64,000 bases of DNA from Escherichia phage JoYop. The notes below the pieces were generated by a model. It worked only from the letters and a program-made list of their open reading frames with translations. It was not told the DNA's origin and did not search any database. The stretch lies in the sequence record OR769032.1; one strand, given 5' to 3'. The translations under genes and the position numbers were made by a program. Within the stretch, counting starts at the first letter, position 1, and the number at the start of each line of letters is the position of its first letter. This document shows positions 42,302 to 47,980 of this stretch, one piece after another.

Positions 42302-42562
42302 TTAAGCTTTACCGCCAGAAATAATTCCGAAGTTGTTAAAATCGTATCCAATATCGTCAACATCTACTTTAGGGCTTGCTACAACATAAGCAATTTCACT
42401 ACGTTTTGCATAGGTGTTTATTTCTTTACCATCACCGCCTAGGAAAGAATACCCATTACGTTTTAATGAGCCAAAGTCTTCCGCATCACCAATGAAAGCT
42501 TTAACTTTAAATTTAGGACCTTTGGCATCTGCTTCAGTGATAAATTCTTGATACATTTTCAT
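42302..42562 (-). CDS. internal-protein-like small protein
   Basis: 86 aa; N-terminus MKMYQEFITEA matches the IP capsid-targeting motif. Confidence 0.6.
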   Translation of the reverse strand: MKMYQEFITEADAKGPKFKVKAFIGDAEDFGSLKRNGYSFLGGDGKEINTYAKRSEIAYVVASPKVDVDDIGYDFNNFGIISGGKA

Positions 42563-43040: not shown

Positions 43041-43322
43041 CTATTTTTCTGAAGCGCCTGAAATATATTTTTCAAGACGTTGTTTCATCAGCGAGCCGTT
43101 CTTAGCGATTTCTTCCGGTTTATCGCACATACGCAACAAAGCTTCAAGCTTAACGATATCACTGGTACGTTCAAATTTGCGAGTATCTATCTTACTAGCA
43201 AGTTCAGAAATACGTGCTAATAGACTTTCGGCTTCAACCAAAGCTGCACCTAGCTTAGTTGCAAATGTGTCAGTAGCTTCGTTAAGAATAGATTCTGATA
43301 AAAATTCACTATATGTTTTCAT
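43041..43322 (-). CDS. internal-protein-like small protein
   Basis: ATG 43320-43322 ([11 protein letters not shown]), overlapping the e stop; 93 aa. Confidence 0.6.
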
Positions 43323-43807
43323 ATATACGCTTTCCAAGTTCCTGTTTTAAATGTTGAGATTACGCGTTTCGCGCGATTAGGTGTCTGACGGTACCATTTA
43401 GATTGGGCTAGATTTACTGCCGCTTCATCCCAACGTTTCTGTTGAAGCATACGAAGAGAATTAGTAAAACCAGCGACGCCTGCTACACCCATTTGGAAGA
43501 CCATATTGACCAACGCACATCGACGAACTGCATCTAAAGAATCATATACCGGTTTAAGTTTAGCATTACCCAAGATTCCGCGAACGGCTTTATCAACGTC
43601 TTCATTAAATAGCTTTTCAGCCTCATCAAGGGTAATTGTACCGTTGCATTTACGTCCGATCATTCTGTCAAGTTCAGCTTTAGCTACGGCTAAAGACGGG
43701 TTCTTTGTTACTAAATGGCCTATGCCAATCGTCCAAAAGCCTTCAGTGTCTTTGTATAAAGTCAGTCTAAGACCTTCATCTATACGTAACATTTCAAATA
43801 TATTCAT
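43319..43807 (-). CDS. e: lysozyme (endolysin)
   Basis: 162 aa; [15 protein letters not shown]...TIGIGH; near-identical to T4 lysozyme as recalled. Confidence 0.95.
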
Positions 43808-43843: not shown

Positions 43844-44284
43844 TTAAAAGAGGCTGTTCATTATTCGGTAAAGTGAAGGACCCATCACATATTGCCACTG
43901 AGTACGAGGAATAAGAGCAAAAGCGTCCATCTCTGGAATCATAACGCCATCTTTATTTTCAAAATAAGACTCACAATGGCAATTTCTGAACATCTCATGC
44001 TCTACTGGAATCATATAATAAAATAGCTGTAAGTCTTTATTACTAGAATATTTAAATACACCTAGGTCTTCTAGAAGGTCTGGATTATAATTACTAAAAC
44101 CAGTCTCTTCTAAGCATTCTCTTCGTGCTGCATCTAGTGCGTTTAAATCAGAATTTTCTACACGGCCCTTTGGAATATCCCAACGATGTGCCATCATTCC
44201 AGGCTTACGAGAACCAGTAACCCGACCCATAAATAAATCTTTATCTTCTGTCATAAAGATAATACCAGCTGATAATGTTTTCAT
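43844..44284 (-). CDS. nudE: Nudix hydrolase
   Basis: Nudix box GRVENSDLNALDAARRECLEETGF; follows e as in T4. Confidence 0.85.
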   Translation of the reverse strand: MKTLSAGIIFMTEDKDLFMGRVTGSRKPGMMAHRWDIPKGRVENSDLNALDAARRECLEETGFSNYNPDLLEDLGVFKYSSNKDLQLFYYMIPVEHEMFRNCHCESYFENKDGVMIPEMDAFALIPRTQWQYVMGPSLYRIMNSLF

Positions 44285-44784
44285 TTTAATTTCCTGCATT
44301 CAGTGATAAAGTTATTTAAATTTTGAGTATATTTCTTTTCATCAAAAATCTTTTGCTGCCTACGTAAACGCCATGGCATTTCAATGAACACGCACCATAT
44401 TCCTGATAATATTGCTGCAGTAAAAATATTAACAAATATAGTACAAAGAGCCCAATCTCCTATTCTGTCCATTGGATTTTTTCCAAAGAAGTAAAATACG
44501 AATGATGACACAGGAAGACTGATAATATACCACAGAAGCATATTCTTGTCTGTAAACCAATCAGCGTTCGTTAACTTAGCGCGACCATTATGAATACACA
44601 CGAATTTATCATCTGTTACAGTAGATGGCTTAACTGGTTGATATCCCATTCTAAACTCCCTAATTAAACAGTTTTTCATATCTTCGGAACAGCCATTCCA
44701 GTCAACTCTATCAACTGAAATGCCATCATCCCCATCATCTAAATCATACCAACGAGTTTTTAAAATCATCTGATTTTCCTGCAA
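44281..44784 (-). CDS. membrane protein, junction-motif family member 1
   Basis: 167 aa; two hydrophobic helices; C-terminus NNFITECRKLK. Confidence 0.55.
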   Translation of the reverse strand: MQENQMILKTRWYDLDDGDDGISVDRVDWNGCSEDMKNCLIREFRMGYQPVKPSTVTDDKFVCIHNGRAKLTNADWFTDKNMLLWYIISLPVSSFVFYFFGKNPMDRIGDWALCTIFVNIFTAAILSGIWCVFIEMPWRLRRQQKIFDEKKYTQNLNNFITECRKLK

Positions 44785-45128
44785 TCACTCACAAACTCTT
44801 TCATTGATTCATTTTCAATATAAGACATGTAGCTGTTATATTCTTTTAATTGTATTTTGTAATCCTTTTTTCTTTGCCAATTTATTTTAAAATTATCATA
44901 ATGAAAATATAACATGATACCAAAGAATGAAAATGATGAAATCGCTATAGTATAATGAAGTTCACTCCAAACTTCTGTTATAATTACTGTGCCATCGATG
45001 TTTAAAATAAAACAGTCAATTAACAATCCAATAAGACTACCCGCAAGAGCTGCAGCCAACGCCACAGCAAAAATTAAAAATGACTCAGGAAACGAATATT
45101 TGACTTTATTTAGTTTTGGCTTTTGCAT
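44766..45128 (-). CDS. membrane protein, junction-motif family member 2
   Basis: 120 aa; two helices; C-terminus KEFVSDCRKIR; overlaps the downstream gene by 19 nt. Confidence 0.55.
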   Translation of the reverse strand: MQKPKLNKVKYSFPESFLIFAVALAAALAGSLIGLLIDCFILNIDGTVIITEVWSELHYTIAISSFSFFGIMLYFHYDNFKINWQRKKDYKIQLKEYNSYMSYIENESMKEFVSDCRKIR

Positions 45129-45523
45129 CGTGATTCCTTAACAAATTTCATAATTTCATCAAATTCATACGCAGCAAGTTTAAGCTGGTGTTCCTTTTTA
45201 ATCTTTTTACACTGTGCTTTCCAATCGCGTATGCGTTTACGATAATGTCTTCCTTGATACCAGTATCCTACCCAATTTACAGGTACTAATAAAAATGGAA
45301 CTATCATTGGAAGAATTAATGTTGACGCAAATATTATATTAGATTCAATATCAGTCATAACATCTATAACTATTCCAACCCCCAGTAGAATTACAAATGA
45401 TACAGCTATTACAGGACCTATTAATACATCAGTAGAAATTAGCTGGCGCTTTAATTCATACTTCAACGGTTTACTTGGAAGATACATTGATGGCTTTGAC
45501 ATATTCTCTACATTCCTTAACAA
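45110..45523 (-). CDS. membrane protein, junction-motif family member 3
   Basis: 137 aa; two helices; C-terminus MKFVKESRCKSQN. Confidence 0.55.
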   Translation of the reverse strand: MLRNVENMSKPSMYLPSKPLKYELKRQLISTDVLIGPVIAVSFVILLGVGIVIDVMTDIESNIIFASTLILPMIVPFLLVPVNWVGYWYQGRHYRKRIRDWKAQCKKIKKEHQLKLAAYEFDEIMKFVKESRCKSQN

Positions 45524-46079
45524 ATTTTTCTAATAATAAATCGCTTTCAAAATTAGGATTTTCCACGAATTTATCAAAAAGATCATCAACAATGGTTAAA
45601 ATATTCTTTTTGCTAAGAATACGTTTATTTTCATGCTTCGTTTCAGAATCAACTATAAGAGTAAAGAAATATTTCTTGCCACGAAATTTTACAGTAGTAT
45701 CAATATAAAATAAATTTGACTTTTGTAAATTACGTTTAAACCATGCGTCACTTAAACTATAAATGCCAAGATAATCATAATCGTCATTTAAATAACAAAC
45801 TGTCCATTCAGGAGAAATGAAATCAGTAAATTCAACATCAAAATCGCATGTCAATGAATGAATTGATTCAATACTTTTAATGAGTATTCCAGGACGTATT
45901 AAAGACTTTTTACCTCTACAAAATCTTCCAGAAAGGCTTTCATCAGTTTCATATGAAGACCCCCAATAGTAATTACGTCCTTCTGCCATGCGTTTAAGAG
46001 CATTTAGTAATTGGTCTGGAACATCAACCTGTCTTTGGAACTCTTCAAACATTGAATTGAAATCACTTTGCATTTTCAT
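45471..46079 (-). CDS. hypothetical protein, junction-motif family member 4
   Basis: 202 aa, soluble; C-terminal EKFVKECREYVK. Confidence 0.55.
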   Translation of the reverse strand: MKMQSDFNSMFEEFQRQVDVPDQLLNALKRMAEGRNYYWGSSYETDESLSGRFCRGKKSLIRPGILIKSIESIHSLTCDFDVEFTDFISPEWTVCYLNDDYDYLGIYSLSDAWFKRNLQKSNLFYIDTTVKFRGKKYFFTLIVDSETKHENKRILSKKNILTIVDDLFDKFVENPNFESDLLLEKFVKECREYVKAINVSSK

Positions 46080-46099: not shown

Positions 46100-46115
46100 A
46101 GGGGCCGAAGCCCCT
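46100..46115 (-). terminator. UUCG-tetraloop hairpin
   Basis: aggggc-cgaa-gcccct. Confidence 0.45.
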
Positions 46116-47506: not shown

Positions 47507-47980
47507 TTATTTGATTTGTTTAGCAGACCAAATGCGGTCTTTAATAATTTTTTGGATGTCTTCAACATACTCAAGAGAGTGAACATGCGGGTTATCTTTG
47601 AAACTATAAGCACGAGCTAGCTTTTGGCCTTCAGTTTTGATTACTAAAAGCTCTTTAAGGATAGCTTCATATTTGGAAATAATTCCTTTAACAATATTTT
47701 TCTCTTGTGCGACTTTAGGATCTGCTTTAGGAGCAGGTTTACCTGAAGCTTTTGCAAAAGCAGCTCCAGTAGCAACTAAACTTTTCCAAGCCATACTAAC
47801 TGCATTTCCCGTAAATCCTTCTGCTTTCATATCGCGAGCAAATTGGAATCGCGATTCATCAGAAGCATCTTTATAGGAATATTTACCCGCGGCAATGGCA
47901 GCTTTTGCGACAGCTTGAATTTCGGTGCTAGATGCTTCATTTAACACCGCTTCATTTAAAAATTGAGCATATGATTTCAT
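47507..47980 (-). CDS. internal-protein-like protein with capsid-targeting N-terminus
   Basis: 157 aa; MKSYAQFLNEA; RBS AGGAAA; own late promoter upstream; bounded by terminators on both sides. Confidence 0.65.
   Translation of the reverse strand: MKSYAQFLNEAVLNEASSTEIQAVAKAAIAAGKYSYKDASDESRFQFARDMKAEGFTGNAVSMAWKSLVATGAAFAKASGKPAPKADPKVAQEKNIVKGIISKYEAILKELLVIKTEGQKLARAYSFKDNPHVHSLEYVEDIQKIIKDRIWSAKQIK

Follow-up and report, generated by a model that had tools for sequence, protein, structure and literature searches.

Four consecutive genes with a common C-terminal motif

The DNA analyzed here, a stretch of 64,000 nucleotides (nt) from Escherichia phage JoYop (sequence record OR769032.1) that is referred to as the window, carries a row of overlapping minus-strand genes, e.5, e.4, e.3, and e.2, whose protein products all end in F-[VI]-x-[ED]-[CS]-R. 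The window represents a Tequatrovirus (T4-like) genome, and identity over this stretch is 98% with Escherichia phage PaulHMueller and 94% with T4T. Alignment with the T4T annotation at 94% DNA identity identified the four motif-bearing genes as orthologues of T4 e.5, e.4, e.3, and e.2, and the gene order (e.6, e.5, e.4, e.3, e.2, nudE, e), strand, and overlaps match those of T4. DNA identity to Tequatrovirus genomes ranges from 94 to 98%, and protein identity of e.2 to e.5 to their T4-type counterparts from 83 to 98%. Full-length PHROG matches were obtained for e.2 (2203, E=7e-78), e.3 (2330, E=6e-59), e.4 (2604, E=3e-69), and e.5 (2607, E=6e-108). An old T4 record lists the genes of the cluster as msp8 to msp3, with e.5, e.4, e.3, and e.2 given as msp4-msp7. 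The comparison with T4 e.2-e.8 that the initial annotation had proposed is thus trivially positive, the genes being T4 e.2-e.5 themselves.

The four tails quoted in that annotation are present at the gene ends on the minus strand: NNFITECRKLK in e.2, KEFVSDCRKIR in e.3, MKFVKESRCKSQN in e.4, and EKFVKECREYVKAINVSSK in e.5. In the six-frame translation of the 64 kb, F[VI]x[ED][CS]R occurs five times, and four of the five occurrences are the ends of e.2-e.5. A loosened version of the motif, required within the last 22 residues, retrieved exactly e.2-e.5 among the 105 putative genes of the window, where 0.18 would be expected. When the remainder of the T4T genome was added, giving about 282 open reading frames together with those of the window, no other motif-bearing gene end was found except one loose match, gp59. 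The motif is exclusive to the e.2-e.5 cluster within a T4-type genome. Similarity was also evident at the nucleotide level, where an alignment of the four junctions had been suggested as a check. For the 3' ends of the four genes, the best in-frame 21-mer identity averaged 14.83, compared to 11.72 +/- 0.55 for the null; the maximum among 20,000 random quadruples of gene ends was 14.17, and none reached the observed score. The coordinates of the genes, motif codons, and neighboring features are collected in Table 1.

Table 1. Features of the e to e.6 region (positions in the window)
Feature	Position	Strand	Basis or remark
e (lysozyme)	43319-43807	minus	T4T annotation
nudE (e.1), Nudix hydrolase, last of the overlapping gene chain	43844-44284	minus	T4T, RB32, and PST annotation; junction sequence
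e.2, 162 amino acids, intact; predicted cytoplasmic N-terminal domain of ~75 amino acids, two-transmembrane hairpin, tail NFITECRKLK	44281-44769	minus	PHROG 2203
e.2 motif codons TTT ATC ACT GAA TGC AGG AAA	44290-44310	minus	TGCAGGAAA at 44290-44298, nudE Shine-Dalgarno sequence and right repeat copy
e.3, 120 amino acids, predicted two-transmembrane hairpin, tail EFVSDCRKIR	44766-45128	minus	PHROG 2330; weak full-length match to the e.4 PHROG
e.3 motif codons TTT GTG AGT GAT TGC AGG AAA	44775-44795	minus	TGCAGGAAA at 44775-44783, e.2 Shine-Dalgarno sequence and left repeat copy
e.4, 130 amino acids, predicted two-transmembrane hairpin, basic stretch after the second segment, tail FVKESRCKSQN	45110-45502	minus	PHROG 2604; hydropathy; charge
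e.4 motif codons TTT GTT AAG GAA TCA CGA	45128-45145	minus	AAGGAA at 45134-45139, e.3 Shine-Dalgarno sequence
e.5, 202 amino acids, soluble; FVKECR 11 residues ahead of the stop, in a predicted C-terminal helix	45471-46079	minus	PHROG 2607
e.5 motif codons TTT GTT AAG GAA TGT AGA	45507-45524	minus	AAGGAA at 45513-45518, e.4 Shine-Dalgarno sequence; e.4 ATG at 45500-45502
GC-rich UUCG-loop hairpin between e.6 and e.5	46100-46115	minus	T4 record L13089: putative stem-loop
e.6, 197 amino acids	46121-46714	minus	T4T annotation; candidate Vipp1/PspA-like protein

Recurrence of the motif downstream of e.6

To follow the motif beyond Tequatrovirus, the window's own genus, e.6 (found in 1106 phage records) was used as an anchor, and the region downstream of it was read in 11 genera and one unclassified phage. 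In addition to Tequatrovirus, these were Mosigvirus, Gaprivervirus, Dhakavirus, Jiaodavirus, Kanagawavirus, Marfavirus, Moonvirus, Biquartavirus, Pseudotevenvirus (two phages), Ishigurovirus, and the unclassified phage POP12. In every lineage read, e.6 directly precedes a gene for a motif-bearing soluble protein of 156-300 amino acids, with tails such as RFIAECREYAK, DFVDQCRANIK, EFIKHCREAVNG, LFVDYCRRTASKK, RFIKKCRGMVK, KFIHSCKKNV, and SFIHQCKVQV. The next genes usually encode proteins with two transmembrane (TM) segments and a terminal motif (EFIKEVRNGTA, TFIKECKS, LFIKNVRRK, DFVMEMRK, and NFINSCRIKR). Small motif-bearing soluble proteins of 80-116 amino acids are also common (examples are SFIQMCRGNQNVS, RFIKYCRGKHVS, LFLEYCRSDVQL, SFIKECRKIVS, and LFIAKCRAK). 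The expectation that e.6 is followed by the motif was tested on Ishigurovirus, the second Pseudotevenvirus, and POP12, and the motif was found after e.6 in three out of three. Over 113 kb from 11 loci of 10 genera, the strict form F[IVL]xxC[RK] occurred 26 times within 16 codons of a coding-strand stop, compared to 13 times elsewhere in the six frames.

An all-versus-all BLASTP comparison grouped the e.5-like proteins into one fast-evolving family, of which the tail is the best-conserved segment. The e.4 and e.3 proteins form a second family. For e.2, the proteins of 92-95 amino acids, the 109-amino-acid proteins, and Jiaodavirus gp128, the tail is the sole link to the others.

In Mosig-, Gapriver-, Dhaka-, Kanagawa-, Marfa-, and Moonvirus, the e.3-like gene is closely followed by a further tandem family, which is absent from Tequatrovirus. 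It consists of three to six soluble proteins of 65-101 amino acids with a C-terminal G-W-V-S-S-S-x-x-C (variants FWFNSSMSC and IWYPSSC) and was located at L002 2856-3650, L011 4691-5951, L016 6522-7766, L017 6710-8303, L018 6567-8137, and L019 7078-7846 (L numbers denote the extracted loci).

Amino acid conservation and the Shine-Dalgarno overlay

Consecutive genes overlap by 32 nt (e.5/e.4), 19 nt (e.4/e.3), 4 nt (e.3/e.2), and 4 nt (e.2/nudE). At e.3/e.2 the overlap is formed by ATGA, and the same tetranucleotide joins the e.2 stop to the ATG of nudE, for which some annotations use an alternative upstream ATG (44299) that lacks a Shine-Dalgarno sequence. The conserved codons had been described as lying in these overlaps and containing the ribosome binding site of the next gene. 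The latter was confirmed, since each Shine-Dalgarno sequence lies inside motif codons. The former has to be modified: the motif codons end 0-8 nt ahead of the next ATG, i.e., upstream of the overlap, and the e.3 ATG (45126-45128) begins within the Arg codon of the e.4 motif. In e.5 and e.4, the Shine-Dalgarno sequence AAGGAA is provided by the K-E codons, and in e.3 and e.2, AGGAAA is provided by the R-K codons.

Across 31 motif instances, every synonymous codon occurs. Phe is encoded by TTT 20 times and by TTC 10 times, Cys by TGC 15 times and by TGT 9 times, and Arg by AGA (12), CGT (6), AGG (5), CGA (3), CGC (2), and CGG (1); the Ile/Val/Leu position is filled by seven codons, including ATT, ATC, ATA, GTT, GTG, and GTA. 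Located 17-26 nt upstream of the ATG, the F-[IV] codons are not part of any Shine-Dalgarno sequence. The motif is present even in genes whose stop is followed by the next start only after 44-67 nt (the Biquartavirus e.5-like gene and the 109-amino-acid genes of Dhaka- and Gaprivervirus) and in proteins in which it is positioned 25-33 residues from the C terminus (RB43, Dev_CS701, and POP12). Compared with shuffled sequences, the RNAs of the four junctions showed no excess structure (z = +1.6, +0.6, -1.3, and +1.4), and a search of the junctions against Rfam returned no family. Because codons vary freely, F-[IV] falls outside the Shine-Dalgarno sequence, the motif persists at a distance from the next start, and neither RNA structure nor an Rfam family was found, the sequence comparison indicates that the motif is selected at the amino acid level.

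At the same time, the Shine-Dalgarno sequence of the next gene lies in the motif codons and biases their choice. When the next ATG is located 32 nt or less from the Phe codon, Arg is encoded by AGA or AGG in 14 of 21 cases, compared to 25% genome-wide (binomial p=6e-5); at 38 nt or more, this applies to 3 of 8. The rare AGG accounts for 5 of 29 cases versus 3.4% genome-wide. With the ATG at +17 to +22, Lys at the first x is encoded by AAG in six of six cases; in the others it is encoded by AAA, in seven of seven. The skew in codon choice results from the sharing of codons between Shine-Dalgarno sequence and motif in tightly packed genes. A synonymous-site comparison of nine Tequatrovirus loci, underpowered and suggestive for two junctions only, gave third-position variation at 1 of 11 positions each for e.5/e.4 and e.4/e.3, against 27-31% elsewhere in the same genes; variation was not reduced at the e.3/e.2 and e.2/nudE junctions. 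The double constraint on protein and RNA that the initial annotation had suspected is thereby supported: the amino acids are kept with all synonymous codons, and codons that form a Shine-Dalgarno sequence are favored only near the next start.

The e.5/e.4 and e.4/e.3 junctions additionally share a 15-mer, AAAUUUGUUAAGGAA (45513-45527 and 45134-45148, minus strand), which resembles, at 12 of 15 positions, the consensus for the RegA repressor from systematic evolution of ligands by exponential enrichment, AAAAUUGUUAUGUAA. The likeness was set aside, as the other two junctions and the other genera lack the 15-mer.

Gain, loss, and exchange of genes at the junctions

In Yersinia phage PST, RB32, and the IMG/VR contig L005, which lack e.2, e.3 is joined to nudE inside the 9-nt repeat TGCAGGAAA. 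The resulting junction reads GAT TGC AGG AAA from e.3, followed by TTA AAA TGA into nudE, so that the PST e.3 protein ends in DCRKLK, the last residues being those of e.2. At least 39 records contain exactly this e.3-nudE junction in one aligned piece, and 447 phage records contain e.2. A common natural insertion or deletion of e.2 thus has the repeated junction TGCAGGAAA as its precise endpoint, and the repeated boundary permits loss of the whole gene with the upstream frame and the downstream start intact. Deletions in T4 reportedly end in short direct repeats, as Singer and Westlye are said to have described in 1988.

The state of e.2 differs between phages. It is intact (162 amino acids) in the window, split by a frameshift into e.2a and e.2b in T4T (window 44281-44769 versus L001 3483-3970), and absent from PST, RB32, RB33, PP01, and others. 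The gene seems to be dispensable and often decaying. In RB32, e.3 (L013 1053-1349) is truncated by a frameshift in a run of 11 A residues (GGCAAAGAAAAAAAAAAAGATT), reflecting either an error in sequencing or a slippery homopolymer.

Other rearrangements were also observed. In Tequatrovirus UFV05 (L010 4001-4321), an in-frame chimera of 106 amino acids, composed of e.4 residues 1-31 and the rest of e.2, replaces e.4, e.3, and e.2. Its joint is a 6-nt repeat, TCCTGT, which encodes P-V at the start of the first TM segment (TM1) in both genes. One Mosigvirus has lost e.3 and retains a 25-codon remnant with the tail ahead of the next gene. In a variant of e.4 (P0113, 69 amino acids), both TM helices are gone, and the N terminus and the tail are kept.

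Membrane topology and paralogy

The description of three of the proteins as small with two hydrophobic helices holds for e.2, e.3, and e.4. Each contains two hydrophobic segments with a net charge of +3 to +5 after the second and neutral or acidic loops. By the positive-inside rule, they are predicted to be inner membrane hairpins in an N-in/C-in orientation, with both ends in the cytoplasm. T4 e.4 is annotated as a "predicted membrane protein." Hydropathy analysis of e.5 revealed no hydrophobic segment.

A full-length BLASTP alignment between e.3 and e.4 was obtained at 21% identity (E=7e-4), and e.3-type and e.4-type proteins match each other across genera (E 1e-4 to 5e-4); by sequence, the two are detectable paralogues. 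For e.2, the score against e.3 or e.4 derives from the tail only (E=0.016-0.058). The three proteins nevertheless have a common layout of TM1, a short loop, the second TM segment (TM2), [NP]-W, a basic stretch, a spacer, and the motif. This layout with its W-basic stretch, together with the chimera that arose naturally at matching P-V codons, hints at a kinship of e.2 to e.3 and e.4. A profile built from the C-terminal part of e.2 together with e.3 and e.4 retrieved eight proteins from 1.84 billion representatives, all of them T4-like e.2, e.3, or e.4, and no wider superfamily.

The array had been viewed as a duplicated cassette of inner membrane proteins. This is in part correct, as indicated by the e.3/e.4 paralogy, the architecture of e.2, the tail, and the in-frame e.4/e.2 chimera. 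However, e.5 is soluble, and in other genera the tail is found on small soluble proteins without other similarity. Since it occurs on soluble, otherwise dissimilar proteins, the tail is a portable C-terminal module of a wider cluster, beyond a relic of membrane protein duplication.

In the AlphaFold2 (AF2) model of e.5, the motif is located inside a helix spanning residues 181-196, with a predicted local distance difference test score (pLDDT) of about 80 there. The motif segments have hydrophobic moments of 0.4-0.7, and the extended consensus hydrophobic-x-x-F-[IV]-x-x-C-R corresponds to an i/i+3/i+4/i+7 pattern.

Expression and gene neighborhood

Transcriptome and proteome data for T4 place the RNAs of e.2-e.6 in the early class (PMC9697503, supplementary files 4 and 6); by protein time class, e.4 and e.5 are early, e.2 and e.6 middle, and e.3 late (PMC9697503). 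All four genes of the array are therefore expressed in T4, both by RNA class and by protein time class, and the doubt raised at the outset that they might be silent can be dismissed. Promoter-like sites within the array number 17, compared to 15.5 expected by chance. Transcription of the array probably starts at promoters upstream of e.6-e.8 and passes the hairpin that separates e.6 from e.5. This UUCG hairpin is perfect (GGGGCUUCGGCCCC on the coding strand) and has no U-run behind it; an RNA-stabilizing or processing role is more likely for it than one as a strong terminator. From the overlaps, we infer that translation of e.4, e.3, e.2, and nudE is coupled to that of the preceding gene.

Scans of e.2-e.6 against Pfam and NCBIfam returned nothing significant. 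A precomputed Pfam tag, PF26876, is attached to e.5 homologues that are 93-98% identical, and this tag is absent from our local Pfam copy. Public names such as "sulfurtransferase" and "DNA primase" for e.3 and e.4 and "host specificity protein" for e.6 were unsupported by any profile search. The 45 close homologues of e.3 stem from T4-like phages throughout, and a scan of IMG/VR with e.4 yielded six loci and no more. In the deposit of Klebsiella phage ValerieMcCarty01 (L003, OR354875.1), many ambiguous bases lead to X residues throughout the translated genes.

Polymorphic internal-protein genes lie on both sides of the e.x cluster, at 43041-43337, 42302-42562, and 47507-47980 on the minus strand (98, 86, and 157 amino acids, respectively). 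All three begin with the capsid-targeting signature MK[TSM]Y.EF[IL].E, and their sizes differ from those of T4 ipII and ipIII.

The neighboring gene e.6

In every lineage examined, e.6 precedes a motif-bearing gene. An AF2 model based on 31 homologues contains helices at residues 2-18, 25-80, and 86-145 (pLDDT 84-97), as well as at 151-162, 166-170, and 186-196. The modeled arrangement, an N-terminal helix followed by a long helical hairpin and short C-terminal helices, fits the layout of the PspA/Vipp1/ESCRT-III superfamily. When the model was compared to the PDB using Foldseek, Vipp1 occupied ranks 1-8, 10, 12, and 16 (E from 4e-3, probability 1.00), and archaeal ESCRT-III CdvB2 and PspA followed at lower ranks. 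An e.6 profile searched against PDB sequences gave a colinear Vipp1 alignment over positions 6-141, with E values of only 1.4-2.9, which covers L-R-x-A-x(5)-E-E-K-R and the hairpin tip. Two results speak against a relationship to Vipp1 and PspA: the Pfam family PspA_IM30 matched none of the 31 e.6 homologues, and hhalign of e.6 with an E. coli PspA sequence gave 0.7%. On the basis of the model, e.6 may be a phage-encoded Vipp1/PspA-like protein, which we consider a good lead and not a finding. The literature searched for e.2-e.6 and for a PspA-like protein of phages yielded nothing relevant.

Proposed role of the shared tail

The gene chain e.5-e.4-e.3-e.2, expressed early and running into nudE, encodes proteins with a common ending, a protein-level module of the form hydrophobic-x-x-F-[IV]-x-[E/x]-C-R that is predicted to be an amphipathic helix in the cytoplasm. 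From conservation and gene order, we consider it reasonably probable that through this helix the tail docks to, or assembles on, one common partner. Carriers of the module are the two-TM hairpins e.2, e.3, and e.4, the soluble e.5, and, elsewhere, several small soluble proteins, all encoded just downstream of e.6. As gene end is packed to gene start, the next Shine-Dalgarno sequence is written in K-E codons (AAG GAA) or in R-K, R-G, or R-E codons (AGG AAA, CGA GGA, and AGA GGA). The repeated junction serves as a substrate for in-frame deletion and insertion, allowing genes to come and go with frames and starts preserved. The docking helix would gather its carriers on a common partner, or on each other, at the inner face of the membrane. 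As such a partner, e.6 would be the most likely candidate, with the two-TM proteins serving as membrane anchors, comparable to PspB/PspC or LiaI. That e.6 is this partner and is PspA/Vipp1-like, with small anchors as in those modules, is a tentative suggestion that we regard as unlikely. A broader and improbable proposal is that T4-type phages possess a Vipp1/PspA-like membrane maintenance system of their own, in which e.6 would be an ESCRT-III-superfamily scaffold, the tail its docking motif, and the exchanging two-TM proteins and soluble proteins its anchors and adaptors, for control of inner membrane integrity or remodeling that would begin in the first minutes of infection.

Several points weigh against a docking role. 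It was deduced solely from the conservation pattern and synteny, as translational coupling was from the overlaps alone. The Cys residue is not invariant, being replaced by S, I, V, or M in e.4-type tails, and K stands for R in some tails. The AF2 model of e.5 is of low confidence overall (pLDDT 63), and its fold has no structural match. With orthologues among them, the motif instances behind the codon statistics are not independent of one another, so that the p-values overstate independence.

Other explanations were considered for the likeness of the four C termini. The motif is short and was defined post hoc, which would favor coincidence. This reading is already refuted by the gene-end count (four adjacent ends, 0.18 expected), by a nucleotide score above all 20,000 random quadruples, and by recurrence of the motif in 11 other Straboviridae lineages, three of which were fetched as a prediction test; we assign it next to no probability. 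If, instead, the motif were a roleless relic of tandem duplication, the slowest-diverging remnant of one ancestral small membrane protein, one would expect paralogy such as that of e.3 and e.4, the TM1-TM2-W-basic-tail layout of e.2, and a three-protein profile that finds just T4-like e.2, e.3, and e.4 in 1.84 billion representatives. It would be surprising, however, for the rest of the proteins to have diverged to the detection limit or past it with the tail still recognizable in 11 genera and one unclassified phage, for the tail to be present on soluble e.5-like proteins and on otherwise dissimilar soluble proteins of 80-116 amino acids, and for it to be the best-conserved segment of the fast-evolving e.5 family. 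The chance that it is such a relic is, in our view, small.

The conserved entity could also reside in the nucleic acid. As an RNA or translation initiation element, comprising the Shine-Dalgarno sequence and its context for coupled reinitiation, it would account for the location of each downstream Shine-Dalgarno sequence in motif codons, for Arg and Lys codons that track the distance to the next ATG, for the low third-position variability at e.5/e.4 and e.4/e.3 (1 of 11 each versus 27-31%), and for the 16 identical nucleotides common to e.5 and e.4, AAATTTGTTAAGGAAT; the peptide would be its mere translation. Yet F, I/V, C, and R are retained across every synonymous codon, the position of the Shine-Dalgarno sequence within the motif varies by gene, the F-[IV] codons are placed upstream of it, the motif remains in genes whose stop precedes the next start by 44-67 nt or in which it is followed by another 25-33 codons, and the junctions are devoid of RNA structure and Rfam matches, all of which makes this explanation very unlikely. 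We are similarly skeptical that the motif DNA has been kept as a recombination linker, with boundary boxes that enable in-frame exchange, insertion, and deletion of cassettes. Insertion and deletion endpoints of e.2 within the 9-nt repeat in many natural phages agree with such a function, as do the e.4/e.2 chimera, the tail-sparing deletion of e.3, and the e.4 variant that has lost its TM helices and kept its tail. Against it, only 9 nt are identical between the repeat copies, codons differ among paralogues and genera and so offer little homology for exchange, the other two deletions occurred at different sites (TCCTGT in TM1 and an internal site in e.4), and selection for evolvability is weak relative to the amino acid conservation seen. 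The RNA, relic, and linker explanations are each partial because they fail to explain amino acid conservation on unrelated proteins.

The shared tail is of interest since e.2-e.6 are among the many T4 genes that are without an assigned function after sixty years. Through the module, at least five protein families that are otherwise unrelated become linked, together with the strongly conserved e.6, in one presumptive functional unit that spans 11 genera and one unclassified phage of Straboviridae, and an orphan gene row turns into a testable system of common partner, membrane anchors, and adaptor. The locus is a natural example both of a peptide motif and a ribosome binding site on the same nucleotides, with a measurable shift in codons, and of a repeated gene boundary that allows in-frame gene loss and gain. 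If it is true that e.6 is a relative of Vipp1 and PspA, the best-studied phage would encode an ESCRT-III superfamily member.

Comparison with known systems

The T4 genes e.5-e.2 are the same genes, and public records refer to their products as hypothetical or predicted membrane proteins. In the literature searched, we found no mention of the common tail, of e.3 and e.4 as paralogues, of the Shine-Dalgarno overlay, or of insertions and deletions bounded by the junctions. The tail and its distribution, the effect on codon choice, the loss of genes between junctions, and the association with e.6 appear undescribed there.

Small size, two TM segments, N-in/C-in topology, and a highly charged, basic C-terminal tail are features that e.2, e.3, and e.4 are predicted to share with class II holins and T4 Imm-type proteins, and they are encoded near the endolysin gene e. 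The T4 holin is the product of gene t, located elsewhere. Unlike class II holins, the e.2-e.5 RNAs are early and not late, and e.4 and e.5 are early proteins. No sequence similarity to either holins or Imm-type proteins was found, and the tails of e.2-e.4 are 31-50 amino acids long with a conserved end motif.

The PspA-PspB/PspC and LiaH-LiaI modules combine a member of the PspA/Vipp1/ESCRT-III superfamily with small membrane anchors. This resembles the present locus in that e.6 models as an N-terminal amphipathic helix plus hairpin and is followed by small membrane proteins with cytoplasmic tails. The differences are that e.6 has no significant PspA_IM30 match, that the small proteins are dissimilar to PspB, PspC, and LiaI, and that the system here is phage-encoded and early.

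The PeSL cassettes of T4-type phages are noncoding units of an early promoter and a stem-loop (PMC2839356, PMC4122927). Like the junctions described here, they are short border repeats in hyperplastic regions in which small genes are inserted, deleted, and replaced. In contrast to PeSL, the repeat is coding, promoter-like sites are at chance level, and the junctions are free of hairpins, the only hairpin being that between e.6 and e.5.

By analogy, the closest known parallel is the N-terminal capsid-targeting sequence of the variable internal proteins of T-even phages. It is reportedly carried by the T4 internal proteins IPI, IPII, IPIII, and Alt, as attributed to Repoila et al. in 1994 and to Mullaney and Black in 1996. 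Identity of the motif with this sequence or with a gp21 cleavage site was rejected: the four-residue likeness, F-I-x-E, is too short, involves the opposite terminus, and is at odds with early membrane proteins, and the N termini of e.2-e.5 (MILKTRW, MQKPKL, MSKPSM, and MKMQSD) contain no MK[TS]Y.EF[IL].E signal. The capsid-targeting sequence is N-terminal, is cleaved by gp21, and serves head packaging, whereas the motif is C-terminal, is borne partly by membrane proteins, and is expressed early. In both cases, however, a short terminal peptide is found on otherwise unrelated, fast-turnover proteins of variable T-even regions, and in both it would act as a signal at the protein level, with its coding DNA placed where exchanged cassettes have their borders.

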